A DNA stretch of 64,000 nucleotides from Thermodesulfobacteriota bacterium. Its GTDB lineage: Bacteria > Desulfobacterota_D > UBA1144 > Nemesobacterales > UBA2774. Position 1 is the first letter of the stretch. Each line of letters starts with the position of its first letter. Both the position numbers and the translations under genes were made by a program. The notes beneath the pieces are model-generated. The model was not told the DNA's origin, ran no database searches, and saw only the letters and a program-made list of their open reading frames with translations. This document shows, one piece after another, positions 37,601 through 51,237 of this stretch. The stretch lies in assembly GCA_963422265.1 (NCBI GenBank), contig OY729416.1, positions 1,280,001 through 1,344,000 on the forward strand. Reading direction: 5' to 3'.

Positions 37601-39246
37601 TCACGTATGGCATCAATAGCAGGGTTGGTAACTTGCGCGAATAGTTGCTTGAAGTATTCATATAAAAGCCTTGGCCTTTGGGAAAGAACGGCAATCGGTG
37701 TATCTTTGCCCATAGACCCTACGGGCTCGACCACGTTATTAACCATAGGTGCTATAATTACCCTTAAATCCTCAAACGTATAGCCAAAAACCCTTTGTCT
37801 TTGAAGCACCCTGTCATGGTTGTAATTTAGCTCATCCCGATCTTGGGTTGGAATGCCTTCGGAGCTAGCTTCGGGCATAGGCAAGTTAGTAATGTCAACT
37901 ATGTTGTTATTAAGCCATTCCCTGTAAGGATTTTCACCCACAAGCCTGCTCTTAATCTCTTCATCTTCTACTATACGCCCTTCACTCGTATCAACTAGAA
38001 ACATCCTGCCGGGCTGAAGCCTTCCCTTATGGGCTATCATGCTGGCTGGAACCTCAAGTACCCCAACCTCAGAACCCATAATTACCATATCATCCTTAGT
38101 AACGTAGTAGCGCGATGGGCGGAGACCGTTTCTATCCAGCACAGCCCCTACCTTAGCGCCATCAGTAAATGCTATTGAAGCTGGTCCATCCCAAGGCTCC
38201 ATAAGACAACTGTGGTATTCATAAAAGGCTTTCTTTTGATCGCTCATCGTTTCGTGGTTAGACCAAGGCTCAGGTATCATCATCATAACAGCATGTTCTA
38301 TAGGACGCCCCGCAAGCGTTAGAAACTCAACGCAGTTGTCAAAATTAGCCGAGTCGCTCCCTTCGGGTGCTATTATAGGAAAAGCTTTTTTAATACCCTC
38401 TCCGAATAAATCCGAGGAAAAAACAGCTTGGCGAGCGTGCATCCAGTTGATATTACCCCTCAGCGTATTTATTTCACCGTTATGAACAACGTAGCGATAG
38501 GGGTGAGAACGATCCCAGCTAGGAAAGGTGTTTGTGCTAAATCGAGAATGCACAAGGGCAATGGCGGATTCAATCGTTTCATCACTCAAATCCGGATAGT
38601 AACCCTCAAGCTGCCAGGTAGTGAGCATTCCTTTATATACAACAGTCTGGTGGGAAAGACTAAGCGCATAGAAATACTCCCCACCACTTATACCGGAAAG
38701 CCTAATTTCATTAAGCGCCCTCTTTCGTATTATGAAAAGCTTGCGCTCAAAAGACATATTATCCACAAGCTCACGGGCGCGACGAATAAAAACCTGCATT
38801 GTATAGGGCTCATATTCCCTCGCCGTATCTCCGAGAGAGGAGTTGTCAGTAGGAACTTCGCGCCAGCCTAAAACGGATTGTCCCTCCTCCTCTACTATTT
38901 TTTCGAAAATCTCAATACATTCCCTTCTTTCAGATGGGTCAGGAGGGAAAAAGAATATCCCTACGCCGTATTCATCAAAAGAAGGCAAAGGTATATCCAG
39001 TTCGGAACAAGCTTTTTCTAAGAAAGCGTGCGGTTTTTGAATGAGAATGCCGGCTCCATCCCCCGTGTTAGCCTCACAGCCACAAGCCCCCCTGTGCTCC
39101 AAGTTGAGTAGCACCGTCAGAGCGTTGCGCACTATTTGATTAGATTTTTTACCCTTTATATTTACTACAAATCCGATTCCGCACGAGTCATGTTCAAAAT
39201 TAGGGTCATAAAGTCCCTGCTTAGGTGGAAATCCAAGTGGCTTCAT
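34612..39246 (-). CDS. gltB: Glutamate synthase large subunit
   Basis: [45 protein letters not shown]; 1544 aa. Confidence 0.98.
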
Positions 39247-39569
39247 AAAAACACCGTCCCGACAGCTATAAATGCGATTATTATTTATATACGTTTAGTT
39301 TGATACAGGATTGACCCGCAATTACCGCTAAACAACTCAATAACAGTCTAATTAAAATAGATGATAAGTCAAAACGGCGAACGTCTGAATCTATATTTAG
39401 TAAACGGAATTACACACTTTCTGTCCTCGCCAGTTCCTTGACAGACAAAAACCCATTTAGCATCTTGCCCAATAAAAAGCCAATGAGTAACCCTAATTTC
39501 ATAAGTGTTGAATTAGGACAAACACTTGTTCAATGCCAATCAAGCCTAGGATTCAGGGATCATTTGGTG

Positions 39570-42500
39570 TCATGTAGCTTCGTTAGCTCTTAAGATATCC
39601 AATGCGCGCTTACGGTGCAGATGCGGATGCGCGAATTGATTGCGGTAGCTGCGCAGGCAACCGTAGCAACTCGAACCACAACCACAGTTTCCCTGAACTC
39701 GCTCCTGTGCGTTGCGAAGCATTGCATTGAAAACGTTCTCCTGTTCCAGTTGCGCCACCAGCCCGGCGCCACCGGGAACATTATCGTAAAGCACAATCGC
39801 TGACTCGCCCGAATGTTTGTCGCCGGTAATCGTCACGTTGAAGTTCGTATCCGGCACGTCCAGCGTCTGTGCCGCGCCAAGCAGGACCGCGTAAGCGACG
39901 GAATACGTGTCCCACTTCTCATGCAATCCCGGAAATTGCAGGCGTACCACGTCCGTTTCCAGCTCATGCCCGAGCGAGAACCGGCCCAGCTCGCCGCCGC
40001 ATTCGGAACCCGAGGGTGATTTGTGTTTTGCGGTCCGCTCGGTCATGTGAGTGCCGCAGGAACGGCAGATATAGAACCCTTCCTTGTTTCTGCCCTCACA
40101 CAGGATGACCAGAGTTCCGGGCAGGGCCTTGGTCACTTGTACGCCCAGCATAGTCCTGGTTTCGGGCTGGACGTCCTTTTTGAATCCTTGAAAGAAAGGC
40201 TGCGTCGTATACAGTCGTCGTGCCCGCCTCTGCGGTTTCTTGGGCTGCGCGAACAGCGGCGTTACGAAACCGAACTTCGGGATAAGATATTTCCGCGCGC
40301 TTACGGACGGATTGTCTTCATTCCATTGCGTGAAGTTGTGTGCCTCGTCATATTGGTACTTCTGGACAAGCCATGCCTTACCTGTTACAGTTTTCACGCC
40401 GCAGGATTTCCACTCCAGCTTGTTGGCAACCACCTTGCCGCCGGGCGCATATTCGGCGATCGCTTGCGACAGGTCCCGCTGGAGGGAAACACCGGTCGGC
40501 TGACCATCTCGGGAGCGGATTTCGAGTTCAACGACATCCACCGGAAACCCGTATTTTGGAATAACGGCTTTACGAGAAAGAAAATTCAGGGTTGATTCTT
40601 CTTTAACGGTATGCATGCGCTCGCCGATACGGGCAATGTAGCGGTCTTTCCCTTGCTCGTAGTATTGCTTTCTGAGCACCTTCATGTCACTATAATCCGC
40701 GCACACTTCTGCTTCCACATCAGCGAATCGACTCTTCGACCCCGCGATCTTCTCGATCCAGGAATCGTCGGCAAGGCCAGTCCCTTCGTGCATGTCCTCC
40801 GGCACGATTTGGCGCAGCGAGTTTTTCAATTCGTCATTACGTTCGCAAAACGCCTTCAGGTCGGACGTCGCACAAGGATGCGACCAGCTTTCAACAAAGT
40901 GCTCTACTTTTTTAAAGCGCATTTCATTTTCCCTGAAGAATGCGGACAGGGCAGTGGCCACCATGTGCCGCAAAACAATTTTCTCGTTCGTCATCCGCAG
41001 GCGTGGCGGATGCACCGTGCCCTTGATCACCCGCTTGACTGGATCTTCGTAGTGATACAGGTCATGTGGATTGCGGCGGCAATAGGTTAGTGCCAAACCG
41101 GGTGTCTCCCGTCGCCCGGCGCGTCCAACGCGCTGGGTGTAGTTGAATGGCTCCGGCGGCACGTTGCGCAGAAATACGACTTCCAAATCGCCGAGGTCAA
41201 CGCCGACCTCGAACGTGGTAGAAGAACTTAGTAGATGGGTGCTGCCGTTCCTGAACCTGTCCTGTCTTTTGCGTGCTTCGTCACTGTTGATCTGCGCGGT
41301 ATGCTCTTCCGCGCGCAGGCGTGGAGGCAAGTCGGCACTCTCGTAGAGGACTCGATAGTGGTTCTCCTTAAGGCGTGCCTGATTGGTGCGCGACAAGGTG
41401 CCAGGGCAACGATTCCGGGGACAAATTCCACGAATATTGTGGTTGCTCACAGTTGCGCAGGTATCACACTCCCAGATCTCGTTAGCCCCGGCGGGTTTGA
41501 TCCGCAGCCAGCGTGGATCGAGACGAAATGTCCCGTTCACCTTTCCGGGCGAAAGGATGGGGTCGTCGGCATGATTCCGTAACGCGCGCCACACATCCTC
41601 CATGAGCTTCGTTGATGCCGATAACTTCTGGTTATCGGCCAGGCCGCTGCCCACGAGCAGCCGGCGAAGGAAATGTCTCACGATCGCGGATTTGGGGCCG
41701 CCCCACTCGAACACGTTTTGCCGTCCTCCCTGAGATCCCAGGCCGCATGCCTGTTGTTTCCACGATGAAACATCGCTCCATTCCGGCGTTCCGGCGCCTT
41801 CCGGCAAACTCATGGCGCGGCGCGGGCGCAATTCGTCCAAGAGATATCCGATCAGGCGATGCGCCTCGTCATTCGTGAAATTCCATGGCGGCTGCCATAT
41901 GGCCTGTGGCAAGCGCAACTCGTCGGGAATCTTGACGAACCACCTGACCAGGCCAACTCCGCTCAAGGATAGCCTTCTTTCGTCTGTCAGCGCCTCGCGC
42001 AGGATCGCCGTCAGCACCTTTCGATCTTTGCCCTCGGAGGTATCGGACGCCTCGAACAGACCGGCCTGTTCCCATTGTCCGCGCAACCGGTTCCTGAGAT
42101 CATCAATGGACAGACCTTCGGGGCCGACCGGCCCCGCCTTGATCGCCCGCAGCATGAGATTGCGGTCGCGCAGCTTTTCGTAGGAGTCCTCGGCGTACCA
42201 GGCGAAGAAGGCGGCTTCCTGACGGCTGTCGGCAAACGCCAGTACCTTGCGTCTGTCTTCCGGCAGTAACTTGTGCAGGGCGGTGGCAATAACCGCGTTG
42301 GGTCCATCGGAGCCATGCACGATCTCTTGCACCGGGTCGCCGATGCCGCCGCGCTGATAGCCGCAGCTCTCGCATTCCTTCAGCTGATCGGCATGTTGTT
42401 GGTGAGACTCGCACTTCTTCACGCGAATTGCCGCTCTGCAATCGCATGCCGGCGTGGACGTTGAGAGCGTGCCGCAGCGCCGGCACAGCCACCTGTCCTC

Positions 42501-43784
42501 ATCCTCCACTGGAAAATAATAATCCACGCCGAATTCTTCCTGGCTGGGATCGCGGATGGCCTCTTTCAGCTTTCCGTCCCGTTCCTTGCCAACATAGTAG
42601 TGCTGGCCGCACTCGCGGCACAGGGCGATTTCCAACGGCTCCGCGTTCAACCCGTTTGTACTTTCCTCCTTACGGTTGAGCACGACAACGTCCTTGCCGT
42701 CTCTATGAATAAGGAATGCTCCTTCGAGTGCCCGCAAAAAGGCGTGGTAGCGGCGTGCAGACTCGTCCTTGGCAGGCGGCTGTAATTCGCCGAAGACGAT
42801 ACCGGGCGCCGAAAAGGGTTCTCCGAAGAGTTCTGCCGCAAACTTCGCCACCACTTGTTTGTCTTCCTCGCCTTCGCCAGAGGAAAGGGTGGCGCTGGTG
42901 GCAATGCAGCGGAATGGATCCTGCCGCCCGCCGTTGCGCAACCGCTGCCTGAGGCGTCGGATCAACATGCCCATCTCCATGCCCTTGGCGCCGCGGTACT
43001 GATGTGCCTCGTCAAGCACGATGAACTGCCAGTGCATGCCTCGGTCGCCGTCGAACAGCCGGCTGTCTTTGGGGCGGATCAGCAGATATTCCAGCATCGA
43101 ATAATTGGTCAGCAGAATGTGGGGCGGTGTATCTCGCATCTCGTCACGGAAGACCAGTTCTCCGTCTAGTCGTCCTTCTGCTTTCGCGTCGGCATTGCGC
43201 CGGCTGTCACTGGCATTCTCGGGCGTCTGGCCAATGTACTGTCCGAACTTCGGGCAGAATGCAGATGCTGACTCGCGCAACTCCTTGCAGATCTTGCCAA
43301 GGCGCTCGCGCTGATCGTTGGCGAGTGCGTTCATCGGATACAGGATCATTGCTCGCACGCCCGGTTCGTCAAGTTTGCCCGCAAGATGCTGACGATACAA
43401 CTCGAACAGGATCGGATAGAGAAAGCATTCGGTTTTACCGCTGGCGGTGCCGGTGGCCACGACGACGTTACGGTCGTCGATATGCGTAGCGCGGATGGCG
43501 CGCTCCTGATGCACGTACAACGGATGCTCGATCAGCGCCGGAAGAAGACCTTCGCCCTCATCCGGAAAGCATTCCCGCGTCAACTCCCGCGCTGTCAATC
43601 CCGTCTTGAATTCCCGTGCCTGTTCGAGATATGGGCCTTTCAGCAGACTCCCTTCTTCTTGCAAGGCGGTCTGGAAAGAGGCTCGCAGTTTCGGTTCCTT
43701 GAAGAAGAACGAAGTCTTCAGGTAGTTTTCGTAACGTTGGCGAATCTTTTCAGGCCAACGCTGTATATCGGTCGCGTCAGGCAT
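39570..43784 (-). CDS. Large SF2 DEAH-box helicase with Zn-binding inserts and C-terminal DUF1998 (DruE/SftH/MrfA-like)
   Basis: LYVHQ, ATGTASGKTE, YPMNALANDQ, TNYSMLEY, LDEAH, SAT, FADSRQ, EEHTAQ, TFEVGVDLG, QRVGRAGR; C-terminal YDNVPGGAG...CGCGSSCYGCL; several CxxC pairs. Confidence 0.92.
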   Translation of the reverse strand: MPDATDIQRWPEKIRQRYENYLKTSFFFKEPKLRASFQTALQEEGSLLKGPYLEQAREFKTGLTARELTRECFPDEGEGLLPALIEHPLYVHQERAIRATHIDDRNVVVATGTASGKTECFLYPILFELYRQHLAGKLDEPGVRAMILYPMNALANDQRERLGKICKELRESASAFCPKFGQYIGQTPENASDSRRNADAKAEGRLDGELVFRDEMRDTPPHILLTNYSMLEYLLIRPKDSRLFDGDRGMHWQFIVLDEAHQYRGAKGMEMGMLIRRLRQRLRNGGRQDPFRCIATSATLSSGEGEEDKQVVAKFAAELFGEPFSAPGIVFGELQPPAKDESARRYHAFLRALEGAFLIHRDGKDVVVLNRKEESTNGLNAEPLEIALCRECGQHYYVGKERDGKLKEAIRDPSQEEFGVDYYFPVEDEDRWLCRRCGTLSTSTPACDCRAAIRVKKCESHQQHADQLKECESCGYQRGGIGDPVQEIVHGSDGPNAVIATALHKLLPEDRRKVLAFADSRQEAAFFAWYAEDSYEKLRDRNLMLRAIKAGPVGPEGLSIDDLRNRLRGQWEQAGLFEASDTSEGKDRKVLTAILREALTDERRLSLSGVGLVRWFVKIPDELRLPQAIWQPPWNFTNDEAHRLIGYLLDELRPRRAMSLPEGAGTPEWSDVSSWKQQACGLGSQGGRQNVFEWGGPKSAIVRHFLRRLLVGSGLADNQKLSASTKLMEDVWRALRNHADDPILSPGKVNGTFRLDPRWLRIKPAGANEIWECDTCATVSNHNIRGICPRNRCPGTLSRTNQARLKENHYRVLYESADLPPRLRAEEHTAQINSDEARKRQDRFRNGSTHLLSSSTTFEVGVDLGDLEVVFLRNVPPEPFNYTQRVGRAGRRETPGLALTYCRRNPHDLYHYEDPVKRVIKGTVHPPRLRMTNEKIVLRHMVATALSAFFRENEMRFKKVEHFVESWSHPCATSDLKAFCERNDELKNSLRQIVPEDMHEGTGLADDSWIEKIAGSKSRFADVEAEVCADYSDMKVLRKQYYEQGKDRYIARIGERMHTVKEESTLNFLSRKAVIPKYGFPVDVVELEIRSRDGQPTGVSLQRDLSQAIAEYAPGGKVVANKLEWKSCGVKTVTGKAWLVQKYQYDEAHNFTQWNEDNPSVSARKYLIPKFGFVTPLFAQPKKPQRRARRLYTTQPFFQGFKKDVQPETRTMLGVQVTKALPGTLVILCEGRNKEGFYICRSCGTHMTERTAKHKSPSGSECGGELGRFSLGHELETDVVRLQFPGLHEKWDTYSVAYAVLLGAAQTLDVPDTNFNVTITGDKHSGESAIVLYDNVPGGAGLVAQLEQENVFNAMLRNAQERVQGNCGCGSSCYGCLRSYRNQFAHPHLHRKRALDILRANEAT

Positions 43785-46569
43785 CGCTCAACCTCCTGAG
43801 CATGTCTATATCGACTTTGTGCGTACTGCGGCGGCGCTTGTCGATAGGGATGGCTCGACGTGCTGCGTCCGCATTGGTCAGGCCCGCAGCGTGAATCTCG
43901 CCGCGGCTGAATCCCTTGCCTGGTCGCCAGCCTCCACCTGCGCGTTTGACGCGGGCGGACGCTTTTCCTCTAGGCGGCAGTGAAGGGAAAACGATCACGG
44001 TGACGGCTTGCGTCATGTCGTCCAGGCCGGAAGCCTTCAGCCTCAGCGTATAGGTTGTGGTCTCCAACGGCGCGACCATCCGGCTGCCGCTCGTTTCGAC
44101 TTTGCCTATATCAGGATCAATCACCATGCCATCTGTCTCCGCATTCCGCGTCTCCCAGCGCAATGTCGCCTGCTCCCCAGCAGTGACCGCCGTCGGTTCA
44201 TTCGTAAAGGAAACGATCGTCGGCGCAGGGTCAGCAGAAACCCGGATGAGCGTCATCGTGGCTCCGCCACATTCAACGCTGAGCAAGGCATCCTCATTCA
44301 GTCGCTGGTCGACCTGTGTATAGTCGACGAAATGGGTCAGGGGGATATTGGTGTCGTCTCCCTTATTTTGGGGGCTGTACGTTCGATCCAACTCATTGTC
44401 GAACCCTACCTTCACAGAACTGATGCGCGGCGGCGTACGCAACTGAAGTGCTCCATCTGCATAGGCCTGCTCACGAAACTCTTGCCGCGTCATCACTATG
44501 GGCGTGTCGCACCACTCCCTGAATTCGCTTGCATCTCGCTCCATACGCCACCAGGCACGCGGCAGATTCAGTACGATTTCGACACGGCCAGTAGCGGACT
44601 CCAACGCGCACGATACGGCATGTTCGTCCGGATGCGGCGCGACGATGACAGTGCCTTCCGGTCGCACGGTTGCGTGGGTTCCATCGGCAGTGAGGATCGG
44701 ACGAATAAGGGCGCTATCAGCACCGACGAATCGCACCTCCGTCGGAGGATGACCTGTCGGGGACGGGATCAGCAGCGTATCCAGAGAATATGGCTCGTTA
44801 TTGACGCGGATTTCTCGGAGATCTGCGAAGTAACGAAACTCATCGCTATCCAGTAACTTCACTTCACCGCCGTAAACGCGGATGAAGAACCGTCCCTGAC
44901 GGCCATTCAGAACCTCTGTAAGGGTACGCTCAGCCAACTTGAAGTTCTCGCCCTTCCAGCCATTTTGTTTTTCCTCGCCGACCCGCACCCAGATGATGTT
45001 TTTCGGCACCTTCAGTTTTGGCACGTCGCCGACAAACAGATCACCGTCTTCAGATTCGTCAAAGACACGCTTACCTTTCAGTTCGAAGCCGGATTGAGTC
45101 AACGCAGCTGGGCACTTCTCGAAGTCTCCAATGGTTTCCGCCGACTCTGTCCCGTCCCGAAAAAAGTAGTGCACCATAAAATCTGTATCCGTGCAACCTT
45201 CCGGCTCAATGGGAGCATTTCCCTTGCGCGTCCACTCTTGCGGTGCAATGACGATGAAGTATCCTTTCGTGATACCGCTGATCCTACGGCCATCGCCGGT
45301 CCAGTTATTCCGTAGCTTGAAGATCAGAGGTTGATCGTCGAACAATGAGAGCTCGTATGGTTCATTCTCCTCGAAAACCATGGACAGACTGCCGGCAAAC
45401 GACGCGAGACGACTCTCTCCATTCACGATTTCCAAAGATTTTCCGTTGTGCCGTACTTCCCTGATTCGGCATTCATCATTCGCGACCAGCACAACCTCCC
45501 ACTGACACGAACCAGTCGGTTTTTTGCAAACCAACTCTGGCCGGGGGATGAAGGATCCCTTGTTTCCGGAATCCCCACTGAGCGACGAGGGCTGTGATTG
45601 ACGGCCCCGCATCCCGCCGTGCCGGCGAGGTGTTTTAGAGTGAGCGTCTTTGCTGACTACACCATTTGCAGTAGAATCCTCTCCCGAGTCCGCACTGTCG
45701 CTCGCACTGCTACTATGTGTGCTTTCATGATCTTCTACAGGTTGTATGTCAAGTCTATCTGAGTCCTGAGCTTTGCCTTCCGTTGAATTAAAAGGGGAAC
45801 TATCTGACTTATTATTGTTCGAAGTAATCGACTTTACAGGTTTAGAATCTTCAAGACTTCCGCCGCCACCTTTGTAATCAAGCGATTCAATTATTTCTTC
45901 ACTAGAGCCCGGTTTATCTACAGGTGTTTCAGGCAGCTTGCCCTGATTTCCAGTTGCGTAGAAAGTATCAGACGTAGATTTGTATTCGTACGGACTAGAA
46001 TCTAGCTTCCCTGAATAACCACCTGACAACTCTGCACTCCAAGCTTCTTCTTTAGGCGGAGCTATAAGTATCGTTTCTGAGGTTTCACTGCTTGTAGCAT
46101 CCGACTCAATGTGAACTTGGTCGAACCAGTAGTCAGCATTACCCTCGGCTAACACTATGTCATTAGACATCAGCGAGCTTGGATCAATCATCAGACTCGG
46201 CAAAGAGTTATCCTGTCCATCTACATCACCGTGATTCTTTCTATCATCCTTATTATCAAACCTACTTGATATAGTTTTGTCCGAAAGACTATCTGATGAT
46301 TCTGTGCTTGAATTTGCGTCCGCCGCATTGTGTGCTACTGTTGGGAAGCCGCTCTCTCCAAGTCCATCCATCATATCGGATTCGCGCTGCACTGTTGAAT
46401 TGTATGTACCGTCCAGATTAGGACCCCTTTGTGCAATTTCTGCTGGTTCTCTCGCTGATCCCTGGGGCACAGAGGATGGATTGCGACTTCTTTCACCATT
46501 GTCCGAGGTCATAACCCGAGGGCACAAGTGCACAAATAGACGTCGTAACCAGTAAACGAACCTCTTCAT
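43777..46569 (-). CDS. 930-aa multidomain protein: disordered N-terminus, beta-rich core, Ig-like domain, C-terminal ribosomal eL13 (L13e)-like domain
   Basis: Long ORF overlapping the helicase start by 8 nt; ends WRPGKGFSRGEIHAAGLTNADAARRAIPIDKRRRSTHKVDIDMLRRL. Confidence 0.8.
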   Translation of the reverse strand: MKRFVYWLRRLFVHLCPRVMTSDNGERSRNPSSVPQGSAREPAEIAQRGPNLDGTYNSTVQRESDMMDGLGESGFPTVAHNAADANSSTESSDSLSDKTISSRFDNKDDRKNHGDVDGQDNSLPSLMIDPSSLMSNDIVLAEGNADYWFDQVHIESDATSSETSETILIAPPKEEAWSAELSGGYSGKLDSSPYEYKSTSDTFYATGNQGKLPETPVDKPGSSEEIIESLDYKGGGGSLEDSKPVKSITSNNNKSDSSPFNSTEGKAQDSDRLDIQPVEDHESTHSSSASDSADSGEDSTANGVVSKDAHSKTPRRHGGMRGRQSQPSSLSGDSGNKGSFIPRPELVCKKPTGSCQWEVVLVANDECRIREVRHNGKSLEIVNGESRLASFAGSLSMVFEENEPYELSLFDDQPLIFKLRNNWTGDGRRISGITKGYFIVIAPQEWTRKGNAPIEPEGCTDTDFMVHYFFRDGTESAETIGDFEKCPAALTQSGFELKGKRVFDESEDGDLFVGDVPKLKVPKNIIWVRVGEEKQNGWKGENFKLAERTLTEVLNGRQGRFFIRVYGGEVKLLDSDEFRYFADLREIRVNNEPYSLDTLLIPSPTGHPPTEVRFVGADSALIRPILTADGTHATVRPEGTVIVAPHPDEHAVSCALESATGRVEIVLNLPRAWWRMERDASEFREWCDTPIVMTRQEFREQAYADGALQLRTPPRISSVKVGFDNELDRTYSPQNKGDDTNIPLTHFVDYTQVDQRLNEDALLSVECGGATMTLIRVSADPAPTIVSFTNEPTAVTAGEQATLRWETRNAETDGMVIDPDIGKVETSGSRMVAPLETTTYTLRLKASGLDDMTQAVTVIVFPSLPPRGKASARVKRAGGGWRPGKGFSRGEIHAAGLTNADAARRAIPIDKRRRSTHKVDIDMLRRLSDA

Positions 46570-46632
46570 CCAAACTGTCTCCTAAACCCTATATTACCAA
46601 ACCTTCTTGCTAATTATATTGGTAATCCATAT

Positions 46633-48393
46633 TCACCCCTTATAAAGATTCGTAATTGGAAATCTGCGGTCTCTACCGAAAGCCCTTTCAGTTATTTTTA
46701 TTCCAGGTGGAGCCTGCCTTCGTTTGTATTCATTTTGATCCACCATTTTCACCACTCTCTTTACTAAATTTTTCTCAAATCCGAGGGAAACAATTTCCTT
46801 AAGATTAAGATCATCTTCTACATACGCTTTTAATACTGGATCTAAGACTTCATAAGGGGGAAGAAGGTCAGTATCTAACTGATCGGGCTTAAGCTCGGCG
46901 GAAGGGGGTTTAGTTATTATAGAGTAAGGTATAATTTCCTCGCTTTTCCAATTATTATAAAACCGAGAAAGACGATAAACCATCGTCTTGGGCACGTCCT
47001 TGATAACGGCGAACCCTCCAGCCATGTCTCCGTAAATAGTGCAGTAGCCAACGCTCATTTCACTCTTATTCCCCGTAGTAAGGACTAGCCAGCCGAACTT
47101 ATTAGAAAGCGCCATTAGGATATTTCCCCTAACCCTAGCCTGAAGGTTCTCTTCGGTGATATCCGGCTTTGATCTGGAGAAAGCACCGCTGAGGGAATCA
47201 AGATAAGAATTGAAGATTTGTCCAATAGGAATTTTGATAAGTTCTATCCCCAATTTCTTTGATAATTTTTCAGCATCGTAGACGCTGCCTTTAGAGCTAT
47301 ATTGAGAGGACATCGAGACCACCATGACGTTCTCACGTCCTAGTGCTTCAACTGCAATCACGGCAACCAACGCAGAATCTATACCCCCGCTAAGGCCTAT
47401 CGCCGCTTTCTTGAATCCGTTTTTGCTAACGTAATCCCTAGTTCCTAACACAAGGGCTCTAAAAATTTCTTCTTCTTCACCCTTAAACTCGGTTACTTTA
47501 TTCCCAATACTAGGCTTTCGGCTCTTCATCCTTTTATTCAGACGCTCCTGATCCATCACCAACTCTACTAAGCGGACTTGTTCAGAATTAGGTCTAATAG
47601 ATAGTCGAGTCCGTCTCCTTTGCGGATCGTTAACGCGGGAGCGGGACACCCTGCCAACATTCAAGTCCACCACTAGAAGCTCCTCTTCAAACCCTTCTGC
47701 TCTTGCTTGAATTTCTCCCGACTCATCAATTACAACGCTGTGTCCGTCGAAAACTAACTCATCCTGCCCCCCGATAAGATTACAAAAAGCCACTATTACC
47801 GAGTAATCTCTAGCTCTTGAAGCAAGCATTCGCTCCCTTGCCTTTACCTTCGAAGAGTAATAAGGTGAAGAAGAGATATTAATTATTAGCTGAGCGTCCC
47901 CCAATAGAGACTGTTTTCTTATAGGATCGCCCGGATGCCAGATATCCTCGCAGATATTGACTCCAAAAGTAAGCCCGCCTAGCTTATATACTGAACTATC
48001 TGTGGCTGACTGAAAGTACCTATGTTCATCAAACACTCCGTAATTGGGAAGACGAGACTTTCTATATACGTCAACCAGCTCTTTATTGTGTAAGATAGCC
48101 GCCGCATTGTATATGTATTCTCTGCGATCCGCAAAGCCTAAAACAACCGTAATGCCGCTGCAAGCTCCCTTTATTTCACCTAAAGCAACCAGATTGTCAT
48201 CTACAAACTTAGGTTTTAAAAGGAGATCCTCAGGTGGATAACCTGTAATGGTAAGCTCAGGAAAACATAATATATCAACGCCGACGTCCTTACCAAACTC
48301 TATATACCTTAGAATTTTCCCCTGATTCCCTCTTATATCCCCTACACAAAGATTAACTTGCACTAGCCCTATTCTTACGCTATCCATCCGCAT
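46633..48393 (-). CDS. nadE: Glutamine-dependent NAD+ synthetase
   Basis: Nitrilase domain (FPEL..TGYPPEDL, LPNYGVFDE, ICEDIW) plus GLSGGIDS, ENLQARVR, TGNKSE, PPSAEL. Confidence 0.97.
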   Translation of the reverse strand: MRMDSVRIGLVQVNLCVGDIRGNQGKILRYIEFGKDVGVDILCFPELTITGYPPEDLLLKPKFVDDNLVALGEIKGACSGITVVLGFADRREYIYNAAAILHNKELVDVYRKSRLPNYGVFDEHRYFQSATDSSVYKLGGLTFGVNICEDIWHPGDPIRKQSLLGDAQLIINISSSPYYSSKVKARERMLASRARDYSVIVAFCNLIGGQDELVFDGHSVVIDESGEIQARAEGFEEELLVVDLNVGRVSRSRVNDPQRRRTRLSIRPNSEQVRLVELVMDQERLNKRMKSRKPSIGNKVTEFKGEEEEIFRALVLGTRDYVSKNGFKKAAIGLSGGIDSALVAVIAVEALGRENVMVVSMSSQYSSKGSVYDAEKLSKKLGIELIKIPIGQIFNSYLDSLSGAFSRSKPDITEENLQARVRGNILMALSNKFGWLVLTTGNKSEMSVGYCTIYGDMAGGFAVIKDVPKTMVYRLSRFYNNWKSEEIIPYSIITKPPSAELKPDQLDTDLLPPYEVLDPVLKAYVEDDLNLKEIVSLGFEKNLVKRVVKMVDQNEYKRRQAPPGIKITERAFGRDRRFPITNLYKG

Positions 48394-51148: not shown

Positions 51149-51237
51149 GCCGAAGTGGCGGAACTTGGCAGACGCGCTGGATTCAGGATCCAGTGAGCGG
51201 TAAGCTCGTGGGGGTTCAAATCCCCCCTTCGGCACCA
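51149..51237 (+). tRNA. tRNA-Leu (anticodon CAG)
   Basis: Acceptor GCCGAAG/CTTCGGC plus ACCA; anticodon arm CTGGA-TTCAGGA-TCCAG; long variable arm; GGTTCAAATCC T-loop. Confidence 0.96.

Follow-up and report, generated by a model that had tools for sequence, protein, structure and literature searches.

We describe a two-gene cassette on the minus strand, at positions 39570-46569, of a 64,000-nucleotide stretch (the window) of the genome of a Thermodesulfobacteriota bacterium (GenBank assembly GCA_963422265.1, contig OY729416.1, positions 1,280,001 to 1,344,000). The cassette consists of two minus-strand open reading frames (ORFs), encoding a 930-residue partner protein (P0001, upstream) and a 1404-residue helicase (P0002, downstream). 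With some reserve, we favour the reading that it is a horizontally acquired and self-contained Druantia-like module of two genes, probably directed against phages or plasmids, whose partner family is undescribed. The helicase is of a known kind, whereas the partner family is unnamed and its modular tail, of ribosomal-protein type, is undescribed. Thus, the cassette probably marks a Druantia-III-like variant of a known anti-phage system. Its features are as follows.

39570..46569, minus strand: whole cassette, partner then helicase, a high-GC insert between nadE and gltB (ORF calls, GC content and relatives' loci).
43777..46569, minus strand: partner gene, 930 residues, P0001 (ORF call; at least 360 homologues; no PADLOC match).
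46510..46569, minus strand: short basic amphipathic N-terminal helix motif, partner residues 1-20 (N-termini of homologues; AGGAG 9 nt upstream of the ATG).
45553..46509, minus strand: acidic, Ser/Asp/Gly/Glu-rich, non-conserved and presumably disordered stretch, partner residues 21-339 (charge and alignments).
43975..45552, minus strand: conserved core of about five Ig/FN3-like beta-sandwiches with no catalytic fold detected, partner residues 340-865.
43780..43974, minus strand: basic tail, net charge +11, homologous to the conserved core of eL13, partner residues 866-930 (NCBIfam, PDB profile and Pfam).
43777..43784, minus strand: 8-nt gene overlap ATGCCTGA, with the partner stop within the helicase start (read from the sequence).
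39570..43784, minus strand: DruE-family (YprA-like) helicase gene, 1404 residues, P0002 (PADLOC, sequence relatives in the PDB and alignment to E. coli DruE).
42882..43511, minus strand: RecA1/DEAD domain, helicase residues 92-301, with GTASGKT and DEAH motifs read in the translation (Pfam PF00270, E=1e-19).
41109..41321, minus strand: Helicase_C (RecA2), helicase residues 822-892 (Pfam PF00271, E=3.5e-11).
39654..39896, minus strand: MZB/DUF1998 zinc-binding domain, helicase residues 1297-1377 (Pfam PF09369, E=6e-12).

A preliminary description, made from the DNA letters and translations, had taken the downstream gene for a superfamily 2 (SF2) DEAH helicase with cysteine clusters and a C-terminal DUF1998, and profile searches bear this out. 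Beyond the DEAD, Helicase_C and MZB domains placed by Pfam, the translation shows several CxxC clusters, four cysteines of the MZB domain are invariant across 29 orthologues, and the protein ends only 27 residues past that domain. Among PADLOC models the top score is to DruE1 (E=6.5e-160, 532.8 bits) and not to the compact DruE3 model (E=5.9e-150); six DruE models beyond DruE1 match at E<=1e-107, and DpdJ, SngC, BrxH and DrmA are matched far more weakly. The nearest solved relatives by sequence are 9tu7 (a 2108-residue DEAD/DEAH helicase, E=3.9e-74), 9wae (1970 residues) and the YprA structure 6znp (E=7.4e-22). The protein carries the DruE-type SF2 DEAH core and the DUF1998/MZB domain that characterize Druantia of any type.

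Our reference for comparison was the DruH-DruE pair encoded, together with Zorya II and ARMADA-like genes, on an E. coli plasmid. Residues 43-346 of the helicase align to residues 48-339 of the 2104-residue E. coli DruE, and residues 798-1398 to residues 1058-1712, so that, relative to this protein, about 270 middle residues and everything beyond DruE residue 1712 (about 390 residues) are missing. The C-terminal tandem PLD-like nuclease domains of Druantia III-A are absent by this alignment, and searches with Pfam and NCBIfam found no PLD or other nuclease family in the helicase. Judged by its sequence, then, P0002 is a compact DruE-clade (YprA/MrfA-like) DEAH helicase with an MZB domain and no detected nuclease domain. 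Subtype III-B, whose DruE is without PLD domains, has been recognised before, as stated in the part of the preprint available to us (Himpich et al. 2026, 10.64898/2026.05.13.724758), and in M. smegmatis, too, the DruH-DruE pair lacks a canonical nuclease domain.

The two genes are laid out in the manner of translational coupling. Besides the 8-nt overlap, AGGAGG stands 7 nt ahead of the helicase ATG, and AGGAG precedes the partner ATG at the distance given above. The overlap, the shared orientation and a guanine-plus-cytosine (GC) content above that of the flanking gltB and nadE had been noted at the outset and can be read directly: GC is 0.53-0.61 over 39.5-45.5 kb versus 0.34-0.49 elsewhere, and in the whole window values above 50% are confined to the cassette. 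Nothing but the partner and helicase genes is encoded within it. A scan for promoters and terminators upstream of the partner and downstream of the helicase gave nothing convincing.

This arrangement recurs widely. An alignment-based scan of contigs from one genome per species yielded 47 partner loci (a scan with the partner sequence alone yielded none), all in records titled as metagenome-assembled genomes and together spanning at least nine phyla. By tblastn, 41 of the 47 have the helicase immediately after the partner and in the same orientation, so that the pair co-occurs, as the preliminary description had required. The contig ends at the partner in three of the six remaining loci (L018, L040 and L045), two others (L041 and L047) hold partner fragments only, and in L004 an intact partner is followed by 4.9 kb of other sequence without a helicase. 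The helicase is a single ORF of 1350-1520 residues in 33 loci, and the same 8-nt overlap is found in 17 of the 34 loci that have both ORFs called. When the 673 ORFs of the loci were clustered, no third conserved gene emerged; since no other family is common to more than three loci, the unit is exactly two genes. Decayed copies also occur, with the helicase split or truncated in L011, L015, L016, L017 and L044 and only fragments of the partner in L041 and L047, and the cassette has evidently been lost as well as gained.

The partner itself belongs to a large and unnamed family. A word-indexed search returned at least 360 homologues; the 120 listed share 50-66% identity across 82-100% of the core, and a source name stands on only two of them, 'hypothetical protein'. 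In an exhaustive profile search, the cluster representatives at E<=1e-30 numbered 1345, a count inflated by generic multi-Ig proteins (Ig, immunoglobulin), and the best 150 matches each exceed 588 bits. The raw 14449 matches at E<=1e-3 overstate the family size because giant multi-Ig proteins match repeatedly; two such proteins, P0123 (4314 residues) and P0255 (3293 residues), contain 47 and 20 matches, respectively, to the profile of the last Ig domain of the partner.

In architecture, the partner is a beta-sandwich array followed by a small helical tail. The basic N-terminal motif recurs, by eye, at the extreme N-terminus of many homologues (90 listed of 149 with long N-terminal extensions), and the start codon is supported because the motif keeps this position despite the variable linker behind it. 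That linker is strongly acidic (net charge -29 over residues 21-335), is not conserved in two family alignments, and spans 0 to about 550 residues among homologues, whose total lengths are 548-951 residues. The preliminary description had placed a single Ig-like domain ahead of an eL13-like one at the end of the protein; the Ig-like fold stands, but about five sandwiches take the place of one. The partner appears to be non-catalytic.

If the cassette were an ordinary Druantia III locus, the partner should be DruH. Such a locus resembles the cassette closely: a DruE-clade DEAH helicase with MZB/DUF1998 is encoded in a two-gene operon downstream of, and overlapping with, the gene for a non-catalytic chain of Ig/FN3 sandwiches whose C-terminal end could bind nucleic acid. 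DruH is described, in the parts of the sources available to us, as an N-terminal globular domain followed by six Ig-like subdomains and a C-terminal domain, with single-stranded DNA (ssDNA) binding at the interface of Ig5 and the C-terminal domain in competition with ATP (Hu et al. 2026, 10.64898/2026.05.12.722862), or as ten domains, several of them Fn3- or Ig-like, without a catalytic fold (Himpich et al. 2026, 10.64898/2026.05.13.724758). The M. smegmatis DruH and DruE genes overlap by 17 bp and encode a DruE of 1667 residues (PMC13316683, as far as that source was available). In a further preprint, again seen by us in part, DruH figures as the likely sensor and DruE as engaging replication intermediates that contain ssDNA.

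The partner nonetheless appears not to be DruH. As a control, DruH of the E. coli plasmid, whose residues 3-1119 are identical to the solved chain 9tud_A ('DruH'), matches 11 PADLOC DruH models, whereas the partner has 0 matches to any PADLOC model at E<=0.1, and hhalign of the partner family against E. coli DruH gives a probability of 0.13%. When a profile of 35 family members was searched against all PDB sequences at E<=1, 9tud_A, though in the library, was absent from the 60 listed of 70 matches. Thus, PADLOC, hhalign and the PDB profile find no sign, beside the DruE-type helicase, of the DruH that Druantia type III would have there. The earlier proposal of a Druantia-III-like yet distinct system holds on both counts, the helicase being of the DruE family and the partner falling outside DruH. 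Further differences concern size and build: the partner core (about 590 residues) is about half the length of DruH (1119-1132 residues), the N-terminal globular domain is lacking, the partner has in addition an acidic disordered linker and a tail of ribosomal-protein type that can be swapped, and the helicase, at 1404 residues, is shorter than DruE of M. smegmatis (1667) or E. coli (2104). Unlike Druantia III, the cassette family has no member from a cultured organism.

It could still be argued that the partner is a very divergent, shortened DruH in an ordinary III-B-like pair. The gene order, the overlap and the restriction to two genes would all be explained, the two partners appear analogous in being non-catalytic Ig/FN3 chains with a C-terminal end that may bind nucleic acid, and III-B likewise has a compact DruE without PLD domains. 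We consider this unlikely, however, given the searches above and the size and domain differences; moreover, the helicase itself scores highest on DruE1 rather than on compact DruE3, and an Ig-like fold is so common that sharing it does not by itself prove homology.

A different protein accompanies a related helicase on the Clostridium butyricum plasmid NZ_CP013238.1 (L048:3759-11644). There, a compact DruE-like helicase of 1559 residues (PADLOC DruE1, E=6.4e-177) is preceded, with a 4-nt overlap, by a 1069-residue hypothetical protein that has no PADLOC match and is unrelated to the cassette partner family (hhalign probability 0.45%). This protein may represent a further unclassified family of DruE partners.

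The most distinctive part of the partner is its tail, which accounts for all the family matches that the protein has, each of them to ribosomal protein L13e. The NCBIfam model of archaeal L13e (PRK12277) matches partner residues 880-928 (43786-43932) at E=5.2e-10 over model positions 27-75 of 83, with 38.8 bits against a cut-off of 96, and the Pfam L13e model covers its positions 63-98 of 180 with 21.1 bits, below the gathering score of 24.9. The matches listed for the family profile against the PDB are solely eL13 chains, the best being 9e6q_AH (E=1.3e-7, its residues 17-67). Neither Pfam nor NCBIfam gives the whole-protein match above curated threshold that would mark a full eL13 (Ribosomal_L13e). 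Homology of the tail to the conserved core of about 50 residues that it shares with archaeal and eukaryotic eL13 is nevertheless convincing at the domain level, for this core only and not for the whole of eL13. Unlike eL13, the tail is the core alone; it forms the C-terminal end of a bacterial Ig-array protein, where uS17, uS5 and other modules can take its place. One homologue, in a Spirochaetia-titled record (L029:9281-11644), carries an N-terminal PIN domain (Pfam E=4e-5, residues 57-174) in place of the usual disordered N-terminus; its eL13-like tail scores 30 bits, above the Pfam gathering score.

The eL13 homology claimed at the outset is therefore sound; the implied constancy of the tail is not. 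A local hidden Markov model of the tail finds it in 218 of the 250 family members with a complete core, and just upstream of the helicase in 33 of the 41 helicase-linked loci. We scanned 31 alternative C-termini with NCBIfam. Two carry a bacterial-type uS17 tail (E=7e-31), one of them at L026, where it separates the final Ig domain from the start of the helicase; two carry a bacterial-type uS5 tail (E=4.9e-28); in one, a full NusB domain (E=3e-33) replaces the last Ig domain and is followed by an eL13 tail; and in one the match is to the NusA C-terminal repeat (E=1.7e-7). Among the tails without a match are a very basic helical one, which recurs, and several that look like winged helices. Three alternative tail classes had been guessed by eye to be uL29, eS25 and bS6, and were dropped, as no such Pfam match was found at E<=5. 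Related cassettes can carry different tails: within a Latescibacterota helicase clade, the tail of L002 is eL13-like and those of L027 and L032 are of other kinds. Thus, the partner tail is swappable: the eL13 type is the most frequent, but it is one of several C-terminal modules that can stand in for one another. Rapid exchange of a terminal module on a conserved scaffold is what one would expect of a domain for recognition or targeting that is under pressure to diversify. All the tail modules to which a name can be given bind RNA or nucleic acid in the proteins they come from.

What might such a slot be for? One possibility is that the partner is a modular sensor, in whose C-terminal slot interchangeable copies of host RNA-binding domains act either as baits for phage factors or as readers of RNA or R-loops that license a nuclease-free DruE helicase. 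As baits, the tails would be aimed at phage factors that hijack translation or antitermination. We regard this as rather less probable again than a disguised DruH; if true, it would be a mode of infection sensing undescribed for Druantia and YprA-family systems, spread by transfer among uncultured bacteria of many phyla.

A related alternative would direct the system to ribosomes or transcripts, with the tails docking the partner on ribosomes, nascent ribosomal RNA (rRNA) or transcription complexes for surveillance or quality control of RNA or ribosomes instead of action on invader DNA, or, in one variant, serving as baits for phage factors that hijack the host proteins they copy. It draws on the fact that all identifiable tails (eL13, uS17, uS5, NusB and the NusA C-terminal repeat) copy RNA-binding housekeeping domains, and that the member with the N-terminal PIN domain has a fold typical of RNases. 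However, bacterial ribosomes contain no equivalent of eL13, the commonest tail, and what has been kept of it is the core of about 50 residues rather than a whole ribosomal protein. In addition, the studied relatives of the helicase are DNA helicases, according to the portions of Himpich et al. and Hu et al. available to us, and the sporadic, transferred distribution of the cassette and its defence neighbours suit defence better than housekeeping. We therefore hold this alternative to be quite improbable.

Several lines of evidence indicate that the cassette arrived by horizontal transfer and has spread between phyla. The source genome (1.78 Mb) contains the helicase once. Among 30 relatives searched at E<=1e-20, it is found in none of 18 genomes of the same family and in one of 12 of the same order, there at 29% identity. 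That same-order relative has a distant DruE-like frame of 1621 residues (G024:C2:97367-102205, seen at L051 and L052), 29-39% identical to the helicase. Helicase copies are 57-81% identical across phyla, which by record title comprise Acidobacteriota, Latescibacterota, Binatota, Pseudomonadota, Gemmatimonadota, Rhodothermota, Chloroflexota, Spirochaetota and Bdellovibrionota. A FastTree phylogeny of 34 full-length helicases requires 15 changes of phylum label versus a minimum of 8, and four cross-phylum sister pairs stand out (Rhodothermota with Gemmatimonadota, support 100; Binatota with Pseudomonadota, 99 and 96; Pseudomonadota with Gemmatimonadota, 97), where FastTree support is less reliable than that of a full search and the taxonomy of the bins comes from record titles. 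A plasmid collection held no helicase relative at 60% identity or more, the matches listed being 27-32% identical.

The insertion site points the same way. Pfam identifies the flanks as NAD synthetase (nadE) on one side and the large and small subunits of glutamate synthase (gltB/gltD) on the other. Of 13 relatives' loci, 12 have nadE and gltB as immediate neighbours, nadE ending about 190-210 bp ahead of gltB with no insert between, and therefore the 7-kb cassette is a clean insertion into that spacer. Its remnant in the window is as follows.

39247..39569, minus strand: spacer from helicase stop to gltB start, of which the gltB-proximal ~100 nt can be aligned to the native nadE-gltB spacer of relatives (blastn-short matches).

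We found no direct repeats of 8 nt or more between the two cassette junctions. An Rfam scan of the window returned a tRNA as its sole match; this only RNA gene found there, tRNA-Leu(CAG) at 51149-51237, is 4.6 kb off the cassette and away from the junction. Contigs from public sequencing runs break repeatedly inside the cassette (window positions 39000-47000), long contigs span both flanks, and pieces of 90-99% identity map to the cassette beside identical ones. These variants would fit several versions of the cassette in one community. One public run, only guessed to be of RNA, contains four short contigs identical to parts of the helicase gene, from which we draw no inference about expression.

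The neighbourhoods of related cassettes bear on function. We scanned the 124 ORFs within 5 kb of the cassette at 19 loci (L001-L017, L019 and L020) with PADLOC, pooling the counts. Strong matches include a type I restriction endonuclease (E=0), PglZ (E=3e-259) and DruA1 (E=5.2e-120), and further a type II methyltransferase, pAgo with SIR2-type partners, HmaA, NsnB, DrmD, BrxHII, BrxA and PDC-S68. Several cassettes, then, adjoin known defence genes. At L015 (3815-8815, minus strand) a second DruE-like helicase, of 1666 residues, lies a few kb upstream of the cassette on the opposite strand. Given this helicase and the pooled DruA1 match, whose locus is unplaced, a type I Druantia system may sit beside one cassette. 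The preliminary description had asked whether such pairs sit in defence islands; defence genes do adjoin at least some cassettes, though not the one in the window. Horizontal transfer, absence from relatives and defence-gene neighbours at some loci are indirect signs of a putative function in defence.

The helicase superfamily and the MZB domain are shared with Druantia I/II, ARMADA, BRIGADE, TALON, DISARM and Dpd (Bell et al. 2025, 10.1101/2025.09.15.676423, as far as available to us). Unlike Druantia I/II, the cassette has no DruABCD or DruMFG adjoining its DruE-type helicase: the flanks in the window are nadE and gltB, and no third gene is conserved across the 47 loci. Nor, unlike other YprA-family defence systems, does it have beside it a conserved BrxHII-like helicase, PglX methylase, DrmB/C, Dpd genes, NERD nuclease, TPR-CSD or TBP. 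MrfA/YprA has in common with P0002 an SF2 DEXH core and a C-terminal MZB domain; it differs in that the cassette helicase is about twice as long (1404 versus 751 residues in the 6znp chain), has Cys-rich insertions and belongs to a mobile, sporadic cassette. Bell et al., in the part available, surveyed about 52,000 YprA-like helicases, and because of that breadth the cassette helicases may already sit in their YprA tree. That the pair is an MrfA/YprA-like module for DNA repair, with the partner as accessory scaffold and defence playing no part, as the repair enzymes in the YprA family, the relative 6znp and the want of a nuclease domain in both proteins might suggest, is very improbable, since the helicase scores 532.8 bits on DruE1 against 52-117 bits on NCBIfam helicase models, no MrfB-type 3'-5' exonuclease is fused to it or stands beside it (the neighbours are nadE and gltB, and no nuclease family was found), it is almost absent from the genomes of relatives, and the cassette is an insert of foreign GC content whose partner has a hypervariable tail.

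How might a Druantia-like cassette of this kind work? We propose that the basic tail of the partner would bind exposed single-stranded nucleic acid, or RNA, on replication or transcription intermediates of the invader. The Ig/FN3 array, perhaps together with the N-terminal helix, would couple this recognition to the DruE-type helicase, which would load on ssDNA, translocate 3'->5', strip or unwind the intermediates and so block replication. These helicase activities are borrowed from studies of E. coli DruE, in the parts available to us (Himpich et al., Hu et al.). As pure speculation, the acidic linker might mask the basic tail until substrate displaces it. In this scheme, the role in defence, the sensing or recruiting of nucleic acid by the tail that the preliminary description had supposed, the contact between partner and helicase and the sequence of steps are all inferred. 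A complex prediction with helicase residues 346-1145 and partner residues 405-600, segments that were guessed, scored 0.04 versus a mark of 0.32 and is evidence neither way.

A number of observations weigh against a Druantia-like defence module, or against parts of the scheme just given. No phenotype exists for the cassette or any homologue, no cultured host was found among the 47 partner loci, and in the window the cassette is solitary among housekeeping genes, outside any defence island. The neighbour counts are pooled and give no per-locus fraction. Pfam and NCBIfam detect no nuclease or other effector domain in the partner or the helicase, and the means by which an invader would be destroyed is unexplained because no nuclease was detected. 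YprA-family helicases include DNA-repair enzymes, according to the part of the survey available to us (Bell et al. 2025, 10.1101/2025.09.15.676423). E. coli DruH and DruE, in the available part of that work, show no stable binding in vitro (Himpich et al. 2026, 10.64898/2026.05.13.724758), and because of this, physical coupling of the partner and helicase cannot be assumed by analogy. With regard to the tail, 25 of the 31 alternative C-termini have no NCBIfam family match, and the proposed nucleic-acid binding is suggested by homology to rRNA- and other RNA-binding proteins. To our knowledge, bacteria have no eL13 and the bacterial ribosome has no cognate eL13 site; because of this, the tail's binding target cannot simply be carried over from eL13.

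With respect to novelty, the preliminary description knew of no described defence system with an eL13 domain, and our literature search agrees, having found no link of L13e to DUF1998 or to anti-phage systems. It likewise found nothing relevant that joins DruE to a ribosomal protein and Ig-like domains, or Druantia to sponges and symbionts. The terms 'L13' and 'ribosomal' are absent from the main texts of Bell et al. and Himpich et al. Current defence-finder profile sets miss the partner entirely, and such cassettes are probably reported today as orphan DruE genes for this reason.

Druantia systems are widespread, but their mechanism has begun to emerge only in 2025-2026, and attention now centres on what the non-helicase partner does. 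Because a conserved DruE-type helicase here pairs with an unrelated partner, the part played by the partner can be compared across two unrelated proteins. In the cassette, a mobile bacterial element has co-opted a piece of an archaeal/eukaryotic ribosomal protein. Moreover, the working end of its partner is visibly modular and, wherever it can be identified, is always a module that binds nucleic acid or RNA, which hints at the partner's purpose.

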